From Magnetococcales bacterium (lineage in GTDB: Bacteria; Pseudomonadota; Magnetococcia; Magnetococcales; UBA8363): a stretch of DNA of 64,000 nt. The translations under genes and the position numbers were made by a program. A model generated the notes under the pieces. It saw nothing but the letters and a program-made list of their open reading frames with translations. It was not told the origin of the DNA and ran no database searches. This document shows positions 27,143-34,925 of the stretch, one piece after another. The stretch is from contig JADGCV010000006.1 in assembly GCA_015228815.1 (NCBI GenBank), forward strand, positions 74,495 through 138,494, written 5' to 3'. Position 1 is the stretch's first letter; the number at the start of each line of letters is the position of its first letter.

Positions 27143-28833
27143 CCCAGGCCCGCCGGAAATACCGCCCCGCCCCGCCCATTCCCATGACGGTCCGCCATTG
27201 GCCCGACCGCACCCTTTCCCAACCACCCCAATGGTGCAGCATCGACCTTCGCGATGGCAACCAGGCCCTGGCGATTCCGATGAACCCGGAACGGAAAAGA
27301 CGTCTGTTCCAGATGCTCATCCGTTTGGGATTTCGTGAAATAGAAGCCGGCTTTCCCGCCGCCTCTCAGGATGAATTCGCCTTCATGCGCACCCTGGTCG
27401 ATACCACCCCCGAGGAGGTCGCCATCCAGGTATTGACCTCGGCACGCGAGGAACACATACGCCGCACTTTCGCAGCCCTCGAAGGGATGCCCCAGGCAAC
27501 CGTCCATTTTTATCTTTCCACCTCCCCGGTCCAACGGCGGGTGGTGTTCGGAGTGGATGAAAAAACCCTGATCGCACGGGCCGTCACCGCCGCAACCTTG
27601 ATCCGGACCCTTGCCGAACGGCAACCGGAGACCCGATGGCACTTTCAATTTTCGCCCGAGAGTTTCTCGGCGACGGAGCCTGAATTTGCCCTTGCCATCT
27701 GCGAAGCGGTGGTTGCAGTCTGGGAACCCGACCGCGAACACCGGATTATTCTCAATCTTCCCGCCACGGTCGAAGTCGCGGCACCCAACCGGTTTGCCGA
27801 CCAGATCGAATGGTTCGACCGCCACCTTGCCCGCCGTGAGGCAGTCATCCTTTCCATTCATCCCCACAACGACCGCGGGTGTGCTGTCGCGGCGGCGGAG
27901 TTGGCCCTTTTGGCCGGGGCGGAACGTGTCGAGGGGGCCTTGTTCGGCAATGGGGAACGGACGGGAAACCTTGATCTTGTCACGTTGGCGCTCAATCTTT
28001 ACAGCCAGGGAATCGATCCCGGACTTGATCTTTCGGACATGGGGCAAATAATCGAATGTTACCGTGAATGCACCGGAATGGAGGTCGCCCCGCGCCACCC
28101 CTATGCCGGAGCCATGGTCCATACCGCCTTTTCGGGATCCCATCAGGATGCCATCCGCAAGGGATTGGCCGCCGCGGTCCCGGACGGCCCCTGGGAGGTC
28201 CCCTACATTCCCATCGATCCCCGTGACATGGGCTTTGATTTGTCGGGCATCATCCGGGTCAACAGCCAATCGGGAAAGGGGGGAGCGGCCTATCTTCTGG
28301 CCCGGGAACGCGGCATCACCCTTCCCCGCTGGCTCGAACCGGAATTCGCCCGTGAAGTGCAACGGGCGACGGAACAAAGCGGTGGTGAATTGTCCGCACC
28401 CCAACTCATCGACCTGTTCGACCGGACCATGCGGCATCCACCGCAACACATCCGCCTGGAACACAGCCATCTGTACCAGGAGCCGCAACGGGAGTTGCCC
28501 CAGGATTCAGGATACCGGATCGAATTGAAGGTGACGATCGATGGCCAATCCAGAACCCTTTTCGGCCAGGGCAACGGTCCCATCGATGCCGCCTGCCACG
28601 CCTTGCCGGGTCCGTGGCACATCCGACAGTATGAGGAACACGCCCTGGGACAAGGGAGCGATGCCCAGGCCATCGCCTTCATCCAGCTCGAACAACATCC
28701 CTGCCGCCCCCGGTCCGGCGTGGGAATTCATGAGGACATCATCACCGCCTCCCTGCACGCCTTGATGGCGGCCATCAACCTCTGCCTTGCAGAATGGTCC
28801 CCCGCCGACCGTCGAACCTTGTTTTTGGATTGA
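27136..28833 (+). CDS. leuA: 2-isopropylmalate synthase, long (actinobacterial/LeuA type 2) form
   Basis: AAGGAG lies 9 nt upstream of the [53 protein letters not shown] and a C-terminal LeuA dimer/regulatory domain are present. The ORF-track start at 27055 is probably too long. Confidence 0.9.
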   Translation: MLTQARRKYRPAPPIPMTVRHWPDRTLSQPPQWCSIDLRDGNQALAIPMNPERKRRLFQMLIRLGFREIEAGFPAASQDEFAFMRTLVDTTPEEVAIQVLTSAREEHIRRTFAALEGMPQATVHFYLSTSPVQRRVVFGVDEKTLIARAVTAATLIRTLAERQPETRWHFQFSPESFSATEPEFALAICEAVVAVWEPDREHRIILNLPATVEVAAPNRFADQIEWFDRHLARREAVILSIHPHNDRGCAVAAAELALLAGAERVEGALFGNGERTGNLDLVTLALNLYSQGIDPGLDLSDMGQIIECYRECTGMEVAPRHPYAGAMVHTAFSGSHQDAIRKGLAAAVPDGPWEVPYIPIDPRDMGFDLSGIIRVNSQSGKGGAAYLLARERGITLPRWLEPEFAREVQRATEQSGGELSAPQLIDLFDRTMRHPPQHIRLEHSHLYQEPQRELPQDSGYRIELKVTIDGQSRTLFGQGNGPIDAACHALPGPWHIRQYEEHALGQGSDAQAIAFIQLEQHPCRPRSGVGIHEDIITASLHALMAAINLCLAEWSPADRRTLFLD

Positions 28834-28902
28834 CCTCCGGAAATTCCAGTCTCCCCCCCGTCCGGGATCGGCCCGCCGATCCCGGACCCTTTCACAATCG
28901 TT
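27871..28902 (+). repeat. Direct repeat copy 1: leuA 3' ~960 bp plus ~70 bp downstream, duplicated at 34331-34925
   Basis: Hand alignment gives 27871-28046 = 34331-34506 and 28491-28902 = 34514-34925, at roughly 96-97% identity. Similarity stops abruptly at both outer ends. Confidence 0.9.
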
Positions 28903-28995
28903 TGAACAACCTCAACAAACTTGCGGCTGTGCGACATCCGATGTATGATTATTTCTACAAAATAACTCATATAAAACATACCCATTAAGGAAACC

Positions 28996-32715: not shown

Positions 32716-34059
32716 GATAGAGCGAACATCTGCATTGCCACGCTTGACCACGGGGTCCTTGACCATCGTTCCATCGGCCCGTTTTTTATACACCTGATTA
32801 TCCCAGACATCCCGGCACCATTCCCAAACATTTCCTGCCAAGTCCAAATGGCCGAAGGGACCTGCGCCCGCCGGATACCGTCCGACCAAGGCTGGTTTTC
32901 CATTGCCGTAGTCCAAACCAAAACAGGCCAATTCCTTCGTGGGGTCGTCGTCTCCCCAGGGATGGCGGCATCCCTCCGGTCCCCGAGCGGCATACTCCCA
33001 TTGCGCTTCCGAAGGGAGAAAGAATTCCTTTCCGGACTTTTTGGAAAGCCACTCACAAAAAGCGACGGCATCTTGCCAAGCCACACCGACAACCGGCTGC
33101 TGCGGATCGGAATATTTTTGATCGCGCCAATAGAACGGTTCCCTATATTTCGTCTCCAGGATGAAAATCCCATAGTGCTGGTTCGTCACCGGCGTTTCCG
33201 CCAGCCCAAAAGGTGAAAGTTCCACCCGATGTTCCGGTTTTTCAAAATCCCTTCCCTGGTTGTCTCCCATCGTAAAGATTCCCCCCGGCACCGGAAGCAA
33301 TCGCAGCCCCGGCAGGGGTTCAAGAATTTTTTGTTTTGTGGTTTTTACCTTTCTGGTTTTAGGAGTCCCTGCTTTGCTGTCGATGACATAAATTCTCTCT
33401 GGGACGCCTGCGGCTACAGAATTTTTTTCCGAAACGCCCGACATCGCTTCTTTGCCTAAGGTCTTCCCGGCTTCGGTTCCCGGCGCCAAAGGTAAGGAAC
33501 GCCTTTCGGCGATCAATTCGCGGATCCGGTTCGACAAATTGAGAAAAACCTCTTGTTTCCCAATTTCATTCATGTGTCCCAGTGTTCGTGTTGGTGAAGC
33601 AAACCCTTGAATCTTGGTCAATATTTTTGTTTTATCATTGACTGCGACCTGAGAAGGGCTCACAAAGACAGGAAGAAGGGTCAGCTTTTTTTTCTCGAAA
33701 GCTCTCAATAGCCACGGCAATTCCGTCTCAGCGACAAATTTGGAAGCAAGAAAGGGCTGAGAGATAAAAAGCACCGCCACGGAAGCTTCCTCCATGGCCG
33801 CAACAATTTCTTTTTCCCAAACCGCTCCCTCTGTGATCTTCCCGTCATACCAACACTGAACCCCCTCTTCCCCCTTCAACGTCTCAATATACGGCCAAAA
33901 AAGTTCCAAACAGCTGACGTCTTTATGACTGTAACTGATGAAGACCGCAGGTTTTGACACGCTTCTGGCACCCAAAGACATCATCCTTTCAATAACCAGT
34001 CGTAGAATCCTGTCGGCTCTAACATCAATACCAAGAAGGTTCAAAAGGCCAACGATCAT
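32587..34059 (-). CDS. TIR domain + FGE-sulfatase (SUMF1/CLec) domain protein, 490 aa
   Basis: aa ~38-130 read AVFISYSHKD...CWYDGKITEGAVWEKEI...ASVAVLFISQPFLASKFVAETEL (TIR_2-like). aa ~262-485 read PGGIFTMGDNQG, VVGVAWQDAVAFCEWL, GNVWEWC, RGGSWF (FGE-sulfatase). GGAG lies 3 nt upstream of the ATG at 34059; alternative ATGs are at 33984/33981. Confidence 0.85.
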   Translation of the reverse strand: MIVGLLNLLGIDVRADRILRLVIERMMSLGARSVSKPAVFISYSHKDVSCLELFWPYIETLKGEEGVQCWYDGKITEGAVWEKEIVAAMEEASVAVLFISQPFLASKFVAETELPWLLRAFEKKKLTLLPVFVSPSQVAVNDKTKILTKIQGFASPTRTLGHMNEIGKQEVFLNLSNRIRELIAERRSLPLAPGTEAGKTLGKEAMSGVSEKNSVAAGVPERIYVIDSKAGTPKTRKVKTTKQKILEPLPGLRLLPVPGGIFTMGDNQGRDFEKPEHRVELSPFGLAETPVTNQHYGIFILETKYREPFYWRDQKYSDPQQPVVGVAWQDAVAFCEWLSKKSGKEFFLPSEAQWEYAARGPEGCRHPWGDDDPTKELACFGLDYGNGKPALVGRYPAGAGPFGHLDLAGNVWEWCRDVWDNQVYKKRADGTMVKDPVVKRGNADVRSIRGGSWFRPASYLRVGFRGDAPAGGCGVSLGFRLAAPASTLNP

Positions 34060-34330
34060 CCACTCCGTGACTTAATGGTGTTACGAGTCCTTTAATTTCA
34101 AGCCCGCCATTATTACCATGATTTGGATTCGAATTCCACCTCGTTGGCCCAAGCGGCGCCGTCTCCCGACTGGACGTCAATCAGGCATGATCATTTCACC
34201 ACCATCCCCCTCAGCCTGAGAAACAGTTTGTCGATATATCTGTCCCGGTCATCCGTCATGAACAACACATGCCGCTCCTCAAGATCGTCCTGGAAGTTGT
34301 CCCAGTTCAGTTGCGGATACCTCGTCCAGG

Positions 34331-34925
34331 GACTGCGGATGTGCTGTCGCGGCGGCGGAGTTGGCCCTTTTGGCCGGGGCGGAACGTGTCGAGGGGGTCT
34401 TGTTCGGCAACGGGGAACGGACGGGAAACCTTGATCTTGTCACACTGGCGCTCAATCTTTACAGCCAGGGAATCGATCCAGGACCCGATCTTTCGGACAT
34501 GGGGCAGATGACAGGAGTTTCCCCAGGATTCAGGATACCGGATCACATTGAAGGTGACGATCAATGGCCAACCCAGAACCCTTTTCGGCCAGGGCAACGG
34601 TCCCATCGATGCCGCCTGCCACGCATTGCCGGGTCCGTGGCGCATCCGACAGTATGAAGAACACGCCCTGGGACAAGGGAGCGATGCCCAGGCCATCGCC
34701 TTCATCCAGCTCGAACAACATCCCTGCCGCCCCCGGTCCGGCGTGGGAATTCATGAGGACATCATCACCGCCTCCCTGCACGCCTTGATGGCGGCCATCA
34801 ACCGCTGCCTTGCAGAATGGTCCCCCGCCGACCGTCGAACCTTGTTTTTGGATTGACCTCCGGAAATTCCAGTCTCCCCCCCGTCCGGGATCGGCCCGCC
34901 GATCCCGGCCCCTTCCACAATCGTT
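34331..34925 (+). pseudogene. leuA: leuA 3' remnant (direct repeat copy 2): 5'-truncated, with a ~440 bp internal deletion that breaks the frame
   Basis: ORF-track fragments 34361..34657 and 34548..34856 translate to LeuA segments ([24 protein letters not shown] and the C-terminal regulatory domain) in different frames. The deletion junction lies at about 34506-34513. Confidence 0.85.

Follow-up and report, generated by a model that had tools for sequence, protein, structure and literature searches.

A duplicated leuA 3' end brackets a degenerate diversity-generating-retroelement locus in a Magnetococcales genome

In the 64-kb stretch of DNA from a magnetotactic Magnetococcales bacterium analysed here (the window), two direct copies of the leuA 3' end enclose an island of unrelated DNA. 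This layout may well be an old insertion-duplication at the leuA 3' end, produced by a Campbell-type crossover with circular DNA, although we hold this reading tentatively. Reading rightwards, complete leuA is followed by 69 bp that contain a hairpin and then by the island; beyond it come a displaced leuA 3' fragment, the same 69 bp again, and a convergent CMD-Rieske gene (Table 1). The DNA between the copies is a degenerate diversity-generating-retroelement (DGR) locus, and its two intact genes are predicted NLR-like sensors whose lectin tips bear marks of DGR hypermutation.

Table 1. Features in and around the island (positions within the window).
Feature	Position	Strand	Basis and remarks
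Intact leuA (2-isopropylmalate synthase)	27136-28833	+	Pfam HMGL-like 3e-70, IPMS_D2, LeuA_dimer
Left repeat copy	27871-28902	+	1032 bp; final 963 bp of leuA and 69 bp downstream; self-BLASTN and repeat search
GC-rich palindrome	28862-28885	.	10-bp stem, 4-nt loop; inside 69-bp tail; second copy 34885-34908
AT-rich spacer, left junction of the island	28903-28995	+	93 bp, 36.6% GC; repeat end to first island gene
NACHT-FGE gene	28996-32154	+	1052 aa; cyclase-like N-terminus, NACHT NTPase, C-terminal FGE-sulfatase (C-type-lectin fold)
Variable-repeat-like 3' end of NACHT-FGE gene, IMH-like GC-rich tail	32040-32155	+	aligns to L044 template and variable repeats
Stub of first DGR accessory gene (HTH-like N-terminus), in-frame TGA	32222-32347	+	tblastn of L044 accessory ORF, 71% over 42 aa, E 9e-14
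Variable-repeat-like end of TIR-FGE gene	32586-32700	-
TIR-FGE gene, convergent with NACHT-FGE gene	32587-34059	-	490 aa; Pfam TIR_2 3e-10, FGE-sulfatase 6e-47
Helicase-type gene remnant, final 45 codons (W of WTRYPQL to final K)	34194-34328	-	stop 34191-34193; rest absent
Illegitimate junction	34329-34331	.	truncated gene to internal codon 247 of leuA fragment; microhomology at most 2-3 nt
Right repeat copy, block 1 (pseudo-leuA)	34331-34506	+	direct match to 27871-28046, 176 bp, 94.9%, self-BLASTN E 3e-74; R247C, A268V, L297P
Deletion scar	34507-34510	.	4 bp where left copy has 28047-28487 (441 bp)
Right repeat copy, block 2	34511-34925	+	direct match to 28488-28902, 415 bp, 97.1%, self-BLASTN E 0; reaches stop codon of convergent gene
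CMD-Rieske fusion gene, native right-hand neighbour	34925-35566	-	Pfam; 38 orthologous loci

Two unequal copies of the leuA 3' end

The self-BLASTN comparison of the window that an earlier note on this DNA had called for recovered the repeat as two collinear direct blocks. That note had described direct repeats of about 1 kb, which holds for their orientation, but the copies are unequal in size (1032 bp on the left vs 595 bp on the right) and the 441-bp gap had gone unmentioned. The right copy has 4 bp in place of these 441 bp and is thereby 437 bp shorter, a difference that is out of frame. The only other long direct repeat that self-BLASTN detected in the 64 kb is an internal 15-nt tandem array at ~12 kb. 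The longest block identical between the copies spans 145 nt (28636-28780), and the copies differ at 28886 and 28892, which lie 17 and 11 nt from the island junction. The palindrome in the tail also appears as an inverted self-BLAST match (28862-28887 with 34908-34883); lacking a T run, it did not score as a terminator.

The flanks are largely as described before. The leuA gene stays intact, its reading frame complete to 28833 with its Pfam domains present; the frame opens with a TTG at 27055, the ATG at 27136 is the likely start, and the closest homologue, also from Magnetococcales, is 74% identical. The right copy likewise meets the native neighbour, ending on the first base of the CMD-Rieske stop codon, and it is exactly at this stop codon that synteny with relatives breaks: BLASTN matches to L002, L003, L004, and L011 begin at the CMD-Rieske gene and extend rightwards, from ~34930 to beyond 45 kb. 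Because leuA lies next to the CMD-Rieske gene in none of the 38 related Magnetococcales genomes (0/38), these provide no empty site, and the leuA contexts of the closest relatives are unrelated.

The right copy is a decaying pseudogene fragment, because 441 bp are missing and substitutions fall on an invariant and a nearly invariant LeuA residue, namely R247C (R in 120 of 120 LeuA homologues) and L297P (L in 117 of 120). Divergence between the copies is 3.6% with a dN/dS of 0.43, a value as expected if one copy evolved neutrally and the other under constraint. The data reject a model in which both copies remain functional (p = 0.0015); if one copy is neutral, 12 of the 19 changes should be non-synonymous, and 11 are. 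The two copies are mutual closest relatives at equal distance from outgroups (65.4% and 65.4% to L041); eight differences could be polarised as changes in the fragment, and six of these, R247C and L297P included, alter the amino acid. Of the two sources of divergence suggested earlier, an old event fits the dN/dS and both substitutions, and a non-identical donor is unneeded. Intact leuA itself has L549 where the fragment and 117 of 120 homologues have R; this position is 3' of the 145-nt block, and a reciprocal crossover within 28636-28780 would give such a tail swap, seen here at a single site.

Gene content of the island and its DGR remnants

The island has a GC content of 54.2% (window mean 57.9%), the lowest of any 5.4-kb stretch in the window, and a GC3 of 0.55 to 0.64, compared with 0.69 to 0.73 in the adjacent genes. 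The earlier description of foreign, AT-rich DNA after the left copy is thus right as to unrelated DNA of lowest GC, but a true AT-rich composition is confined to the spacer and the TIR-coding part (45.9% GC). We found no similarity between the spacer (28903-28995) and the regions upstream of orthologous cassettes.

The NACHT-FGE protein has the order effector, central STAND (NACHT) NTPase, and sensor, represented by a cyclase-like N-terminus, NACHT, and an FGE domain (Pfam NACHT 3.9e-10, FGE-sulfatase 7e-36; NPHP3_N also matched), as is typical of bacterial NLR-like STAND anti-phage proteins such as bNACHT and Avs. Residues ~1-210 are predicted to adopt a class III nucleotidyl-cyclase-like fold (AlphaFold model; Foldseek against the PDB, 3et6_B, E = 6e-9). 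Its sole exact database match is a 100% identical protein in an NCBI Magnetococcales MAG, and PADLOC returned only a marginal mad8 match (E = 0.003), with no described defence model matched. For the TIR-FGE protein, PADLOC matches are confined to the TIR part (ThsB model, E = 1.8e-10). Thoeris (ThsA/ThsB) was rejected as an assignment, as the TIR matches the ThsB model but there is no ThsA, with the FGE domain in its place. The two FGE domains have 43% identity, share the tail GFRLAAPASTL, and form an inverted repeat in the DNA. The two sensor genes may have been retained as a putative defence module.

Several features point to the DGR origin of the locus. Both proteins end in a C-type-lectin/FGE-sulfatase domain (PF03781, E = 7e-36 and 6e-47), and the variable repeats at their 3' ends differ from each other at 13 of 22 adenine columns vs 7 of 91 other columns (Fisher 5e-7; adenines as in the template repeat of the orthologous cassette locus L044). 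The repeats of L044 show a similar pattern against their own template, with differences at 12 of 22 adenine columns vs 9 of 91 others. The DNA between the variable repeats (32155-32586) is collinear with L044 positions 11086-11431, 13848-13871, and 14141-14213, without the accessory genes, template repeat, and reverse transcriptase of L044. Self-BLAST of the window detected no third repeat copy that could be a template repeat, and tblastn with the L044 enzyme detected no reverse transcriptase in the window. The template repeat, the reverse transcriptase, and the remaining accessory genes have been deleted from the locus.

Cellular DGR loci of clade 5D, described by Dore et al. 2024, have two STAND/NACHT-C-type-lectin targets, and loci without reverse transcriptase, as well as remote targets, were also described (PMC10907252). 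As in clade 5D, the targets of the island form a convergent pair, each carries one lectin (FGE-sulfatase) domain at its C-terminus, NACHT is central, the N-terminal effectors are TIR or uncharacterised, and the 3' ends of the genes hold variable repeats (PMC10907252). It differs in being without template repeat and reverse transcriptase, with only a 42-codon accessory stub left, in the predicted class III cyclase fold of the N-terminal domain, and in its Magnetococcales host, whereas that study stresses multicellular bacteria (PMC10907252). Defence-associated STAND NTPases with FGE-sulfatase-like sensors (PMC13581612) and FGS domains in conflict systems (PMC7159879) offer the same tripartite arrangement of effector, STAND NTPase, and FGE-sulfatase-like sensor; unlike in those, the PADLOC match here is limited to the TIR domain, and the subfamily is known from sequence.

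At its right end the island holds the remnant of a helicase-type gene. A phmmer search with 47 residues (34194-34334, including the two junction residues S and P) against 1.84 billion proteins gave 34 matches (best 4e-15). Almost all of them fall at the C-terminus of the matched protein, and homology within the window begins exactly at 34328. The family represents the C-terminal end of ResIII/DEAD helicase-type (restriction-type helicase/nuclease) genes, a context seen in L047. The right end of the island is a truncation junction that cuts both the helicase/nuclease-type gene and the leuA fragment, which begins there at an arbitrary internal codon.

Related cassettes at other loci

The convergent NACHT-FGE and TIR-FGE pair also occurs in the closest relative, at a different locus (L045/L046), and NACHT-FGE homologues are scattered over further loci. 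The cassette lies at different loci in relatives and therefore relocates. At L050, the NACHT-FGE gene is bracketed by a direct repeat of 85-96 nt that comprises the last 46 nt of the upstream gene and a hairpin, and the right repeat copy abuts a convergent gene, the same geometry as in the window. No flanking repeats were found at L044 and L051. Counting the cassette loci with both flanks available, a duplicated 3' end is present at two of four (1032 bp in the window and ~90 nt at L050), compared with one of 23 arbitrary control segments. Close copies of the island were absent from the metagenome, viral, and plasmid collections.

Possible origins of the layout

For the Campbell-type insertion, a circular or circularised DNA would have carried a leuA 3' fragment beside the defence cassette and would have recombined once, reciprocally, with chromosomal leuA inside the shared homology. 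The crossover would most likely have been of the ordinary RecA type, which is favoured because neither a recombinase nor an att core was found. Scans of the island ORFs with Pfam and PADLOC upheld the earlier statement that there is no integrase or transposase, and neither an excisionase nor a short conserved att core was found at the island; tRNA genes are absent from the window, and no match to Rfam reached the gathering score. Since the event, the displaced fragment has lost 441 bp and gained inactivating substitutions, and the island has lost most of the helicase/nuclease gene along with the core of the DGR, comprising its accessory genes, template repeat, and reverse transcriptase.

Campbell-type insertion keeps the target gene intact when the fragment on the circle includes the 3' end of the gene, and most known examples are laboratory suicide vectors and plasmids integrated through IS elements. 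The window has the same order of chromosome, homology, insert, homology, and chromosome: direct repeats of one contiguous chromosomal segment surround the insert, and one copy runs into the native neighbour, the other into the insert. It differs in that one homology end has been eroded by deletion, later or simultaneous. Neither an empty site nor a circular donor was found among the 38 relatives or in the metagenome, viral, and plasmid collections. With the island truncated at its right end, a recombinase that is missing now may still have been there at integration, and the original length of the repeat is lost.

The single crossover proposed in the earlier note accounts for the layout and for the missing recombinase, but site-specific integration of the e14/icd type gives the same layout. 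We consider it unlikely that an element integrated site-specifically into the 3' part of leuA, supplied a surrogate leuA 3' end, and later had its integrase module deleted together with the 5' part of the fragment. The surrogate arm would be at least 1 kb, far longer than known arms such as the 165 bp at icd, and the 69-bp homology past the leuA stop reaches exactly to the stop of the neighbour, as expected of captured chromosomal DNA and not of an evolved attP arm. Pfam and PADLOC scans of all island ORFs revealed no integrase or excisionase, and no short conserved core was found.

The architecture is nonetheless identical to that at E. coli icd, where site-specific integration of e14 or phage 21 left icd, prophage, and an icdC pseudogene, the element providing a surrogate 3' end (PMC13626634). 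As there, an intact metabolic gene is followed by an inserted element and, at its far end, by a C-terminal pseudogene piece of that gene, displaced but in direct orientation. The copies are a few substitutions apart, and recombination between them would yield a chimeric gene (PMC13626634). Unlike the island, e14 encodes an integrase and leaves the chromosome by site-specific recombination; its duplication is ~0.15 kb compared with at least 1 kb in the window, where 441 bp are missing from inside the fragment and the cargo is something other than a prophage. Because the right end is a truncation junction, an e14/icd-type event with later integrase loss fits the layout equally: gene loss is clear at this junction and could have included a recombinase gene or a longer stretch of the repeat. 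The L549 in the tail of intact leuA, with the conserved R in the fragment, looks as if the element had supplied the tail. In addition, P0243 of the remnant family is fused to an integrase Arm DNA-binding domain (Pfam 2.9e-23), and P0242 has a short N-terminal stretch with an HTH that is excisionase-like by eye only, which shows that members of the family occur together with integrative elements.

Origins without a circular donor appear improbable. Either homology-facilitated illegitimate recombination of a linear fragment from a relative, or a template-switch duplication of the leuA tail with foreign DNA inserted at the joint, would suit one junction being seamless homology while that at 34330/34331 is illegitimate, with microhomology of at most 2-3 nt, and cuts two genes; post-duplication decay also explains all divergence and makes a diverged donor unnecessary. 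However, when homology anchors only one end, recipient DNA is normally replaced or deleted and the anchor is not duplicated, in-place duplication followed by insertion exactly at the novel joint would be two coincident events, and the L050 repeat, of the same geometry but only ~90 nt, fits captured flanks of arbitrary length better.

Less probable still is an assembly artefact, in which the contig, probably from a short-read MAG, mis-phases two near-identical leuA tails and the true state is an empty site with the island on another molecule or in another strain. The sequence very probably stems from a MAG, the only exact database match of the island protein lies in one, the 145-nt identical block exceeds common k-mer sizes so that the phase across it rests on assembly, and a tail swap 3' of this block would move every derived non-synonymous change, L549 among them, to the fragment. 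Against this, the reads must contain 34330/34331, 34506/34511, and both repeat ends, as all of these are unique sequences; the allelic differences at 28886 and 28892 near the island junction show that the tail exists in two distinct copies; and a 6-kb circle without replication genes would not attain chromosomal coverage.

The feature is a genuine insertion scar, old and of a well-known type, in a single sequence compatible with more than one recombination mechanism, for which we prefer the Campbell-type insertion-duplication. As a long shot, NLR-like sensor cassettes diversified by DGRs may move to new sites on Magnetococcales chromosomes while lacking any recombinase of their own, with recurrent insertion at the hairpin between convergent genes duplicating the 3' end of the upstream gene, and with captured flanks of arbitrary length serving as portable homology arms.

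Anatomy of the duplicated leuA end

The 3' end of leuA (2-isopropylmalate synthase) occurs twice in the window as two collinear direct repeat blocks, which bracket an island with two intact, convergent genes (see table). The earlier note had described this duplication, and window self-comparison bears out its coordinates and its identity estimate. The repeat is real, but its anatomy needs correction, as the left copy measures 1032 bp and the right copy only 595 bp: in the latter, 28047-28487 (441 bp) is missing and 4 bp stand in its place, a net loss of 437 bp that puts the displaced leuA fragment out of frame.

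Coordinates of the features discussed, in the window unless a locus from a related genome (L044, L050) is named
Feature	Position	Strand	Description
Left leuA copy	27871-28902		last 963 bp of leuA (gene end 28833) plus 69 bp
Palindrome within the 69-bp tail of the left copy			GC-rich, 10-bp stem
Direct repeat block 1	27871-28046 and 34331-34506		176 bp, 94.9% identity
Direct repeat block 2	28488-28902 and 34511-34925		415 bp, 97.1% identity
NACHT-FGE gene	28996-32154		1052 aa; NACHT NTPase and C-terminal FGE-sulfatase (C-type-lectin fold) domain
Variable-repeat gene ends	32040-32155 and 32586-32700		align to the L044 template repeat
Accessory-gene stub	32222-32347		42 codons of the first accessory gene, in-frame stop
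TIR-FGE gene	32587-34059	minus	490 aa; TIR and FGE-sulfatase domains
Gene remnant	34194-34334	minus	47 residues
CMD-Rieske gene	34925-35566	minus	convergent; right leuA copy ends on the first base of its stop codon (34925)
L044 DGR, overall extent	10953-13821		template repeat, reverse transcriptase, accessory genes
L044 variable repeat	10953-11069
L044 template repeat	12585-12701		AAC-rich
L044 RVT_1 reverse transcriptase			translation shows IGNLTSQ and YMDD
L050 direct repeats	7763-7858 and 11350-11445

At its right end, the island carries a gene remnant that matches the C-terminal ends of one protein family (34 matches, 66-75% identity, best E 4e-15). The homology begins exactly at 34328 with a W codon, and the leuA fragment lies two bases away; the junction 34330/34331 therefore cuts two genes, both at arbitrary points and without useful microhomology. 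The DNA once between them is lost, and could have included a further part of the leuA copy, perhaps with mobility genes. Longer members of the remnant's family share a conserved FIEPHG stretch that by eye appears nuclease-like, and in the related-genome locus L047 the family makes up the final part of a gene of ~1100 codons that is broken by a frameshift, starts with a ResIII/DEAD helicase domain, and lies in a cluster that also holds a DNA methylase. A PDB sequence search with the family gave no match. Several database ORFs join the ~45-residue tail of the remnant to unrelated N-termini: P0243 to an integrase Arm DNA-binding domain (Pfam), P0242 to a short stretch resembling an excisionase-type HTH (by eye), with the join at WTRYPQL as in the window, and P0241 to an apparent helicase N-terminus (by eye). 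Breaks seem to fall often at the 3' end of this gene family.

The two leuA copies differ at 21 positions (8 synonymous, 11 non-synonymous, and 2 non-coding). The fragment carries R247C, at a position that is R in 120/120 LeuA homologues, L297P, at a position that is L in 117/120, and A268V. Among the differences that two outgroups polarise, 8 are derived in the fragment and 3 in the intact gene; the outgroup distance is equal for both copies. The dN/dS between them is 0.43, a model in which both are functional (omega 0.1) is rejected (p = 0.0015), and a model with one neutral copy expects 12 of 19 coding differences to be non-synonymous, where 11 are observed. An old event followed by decay of one copy is sufficient to account for the divergence. 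The earlier note had offered age or a related but non-identical donor: the first fits the substitution pattern, and the second is not needed because the substitutions match one decaying copy, so we set aside a foreign donor as the source of the 3.6% divergence. In the intact gene, residue 549 is L (L549), where R is present in the fragment and in 117/120 homologues. The site is located 3' of the longest block of identity (28636-28780), and a reciprocal crossover within that block would swap exactly the L549/R tails, a hint from a single site.

Island genes and the retroelement remnant

The island has the lowest GC content in the window (54.2%) and a GC3 of 0.55-0.64 versus about 0.70, and its cargo is compositionally distinct from the rest of the window. 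The two encoded proteins have the C-terminus GFRLAAPASTL in common, and the common 3' ends of their FGE domains form an inverted repeat (32074-32155 and 32586-32667). The first ~210 residues of the NACHT-FGE protein (window 28996-29630) have no Pfam match; a confident structure model of this region matches class III nucleotidyl cyclases (Foldseek against PDB: 3et6_B, E 6e-9; Ma1120, TM 0.74; also a uridylate cyclase). All ten homologues compared have D14 and G60-D61-G62, and the modelled cyclase domain keeps the two metal-binding Asp positions. The model suggests that the N-terminal domain is a putative cyclic-nucleotide-producing effector on an NLR-like sensor.

In L044, a complete diversity-generating retroelement (DGR) includes the orthologous NACHT-FGE gene, together with two accessory ORFs and a second target gene, TIR-NACHT-FGE. 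The reverse transcriptase has motifs that we take to be of DGR type. With the L044 template as reference, the variable-repeat ends of the two window genes differ from each other at 13/22 template-adenine columns versus 7/91 others (Fisher 5e-7). The 430-bp spacer between the island genes is collinear with L044 apart from the loss of the template repeat, the reverse transcriptase, and all accessory-gene sequence but the 42-codon stub, and neither a reverse transcriptase nor a third repeat copy occurs within the 64-kb window. Because the variable-repeat ends stay and the retroelement core is gone, the island is a degenerate DGR locus with two orphan targets, a kind of locus that has been described before (Dore et al. 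2024, PMC10907252; Kaur et al. 2020, PMC7159879; 2026 STAND survey, PMC13581612).

The NACHT-FGE protein and its top plasmid match are just 32% identical. JGI metagenome contigs contain no match to an exact DNA pattern taken from the 69-bp tail, and a protein-profile scan of these and of viral contigs also gave none. We found no Rfam family at gathering score, no tRNA or tmRNA, no promoter or terminator matches above shuffled expectation, and no Pfam match for the small island ORFs and the 47-aa remnant. The non-coding DNA upstream of both island genes is not conserved with orthologous cassettes, so the cassette borders are not definable by comparison.

Chromosomal setting and proposed route of integration

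Orthologues of the CMD-Rieske protein are found in 38 Magnetococcales genomes (top identity 93%), and to the right of 34925 the gene order, from RNase E/G onwards, is common to four loci in related genomes (L002, L003, L004, and L011) out to the 45-kb position. The left side of the window comprises core genes (ValRS, RlpA, ABC exporter, pyruvate dehydrogenase E1/E2/E3, PIN protein, and leuA). None of the relatives has these genes downstream of CMD-Rieske, and leuA of the nearest relatives (74% and 68% identity) lies in neighbourhoods unrelated to that of the window; hence the empty site proposed as a check, with leuA directly beside the CMD-Rieske gene, does not occur in available genomes. We rejected the idea that a conserved defence hotspot lies downstream of CMD-Rieske, as the relatives have assorted housekeeping genes there instead.

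Other features of the flanks are recorded here. A weak PIN-domain gene between lpd and leuA (26085-26558; Pfam E 0.0014, under gathering score) has a small ORF upstream (25769-26032) and no PADLOC match; the gene may encode a VapC-like toxin whose partner is upstream. The ORF at 11859-15062 (1067 codons, no Pfam match) contains ~60 tandem copies of the 15-nt unit TTCTTCCTCAAGGGA at 11993-13006, with higher-order periods of 30, 45, and 75; its coding strand is uncertain because the reverse strand of the array would encode SLEEE-like acidic pentapeptide repeats. A nested palindrome of 260 nt (58985-59245) has an outer 19-nt inverted repeat, CGCCATTTCACCCGAAGCG, around hairpins with GCGGTTTTTGCG-type loops, folds as single-stranded DNA at -117.8 kcal/mol (z = -18.3), and has no Rfam match. 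A partial copy lies at 45584-45643, and pieces ~85% identical occur in the related-genome loci L001 (5-124) and L004 (6152-6229), about 1.1 kb past their CMD-Rieske gene.

The layout is that of an intact gene, cargo, a displaced 3' fragment, and the native neighbour, which one reciprocal crossover with a circular DNA within the leuA 3' homology would produce. The Campbell-type reading of the earlier note fits this layout and is plausible, but not exclusive. Catalysis by RecA is favoured by the absence of a recombinase and the long homology. Given the truncated right end of the island, the crossover may instead have been catalysed by an integrase, as for e14 at icd in E. coli (PMC13626634), to which the layout can be likened. 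Assembly mis-phasing across the 145-nt identical block is a real caveat because the sole exact database match to the NACHT-FGE protein, P0121 (100% identical), comes from an NCBI Magnetococcales MAG; against it, the unique junctions, together with allelic differences at 11 and 17 nt from the edge of the island, show that the tail exists in two distinct copies. One-ended homologous capture or template switching is less economical. P0121 is identical to the island protein, the best LeuA match is 74% identical, and an exact-sequence look-up of the CMD-Rieske protein returned no record; collections apparently cover the source genome only in part.

Movement of the cassette and its meaning

The same convergent pair is found at a different locus in the closest relative (L045/L046), and NACHT-FGE homologues are scattered over other loci; judging by these comparisons, the cassette relocates between genomes. 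In L050, a single NACHT-FGE gene lies between 85-96-nt direct repeats of 90-94% identity. Each repeat comprises the upstream gene's last 46 nt and a hairpin, and a dispersed hairpin element makes up part of the repeat. A gap of 20 nt separates the right copy from a convergent CbiM gene; the geometry is that of the window on a smaller scale. A short remnant between the gene and the right repeat (~11170-11290) resembles a reverse transcriptase N-terminus by eye. Cassettes in L044 and L051, also from related genomes, have no flanking repeats. Leaving out L045, L046, and L049, which end at contig edges, we find a comparable repeat pair in 2/4 cassette loci versus 1/23 arbitrary control segments, suggestive but thin evidence that duplication of flanking sequence is linked with the cassettes. 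The main lead is the question whether recombination with duplication of flanking sequence is a general way for such cassettes to move.

The kinds of locus are known and the example is new: an island between two copies of a gene tail, with an NLR-like sensor pair that is DGR-targeted and has lost the retroelement core. Current concepts are unchanged, and the value lies in a documented case and a lead on the relocation of recombinase-less defence cassettes. If the single-crossover reading is true, this would be a clean case from nature in which a defence module entered via the tail of a housekeeping gene and left the gene undisrupted, and the scar would be roughly datable because the displaced fragment decayed at a neutral rate. 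DGR-targeted NLR-like sensors, which until now have mostly been discussed for multicellular bacteria, are present in the usually unicellular Magnetococcales, and DGR loci can drop both the reverse transcriptase and the template with their sensor genes still intact.
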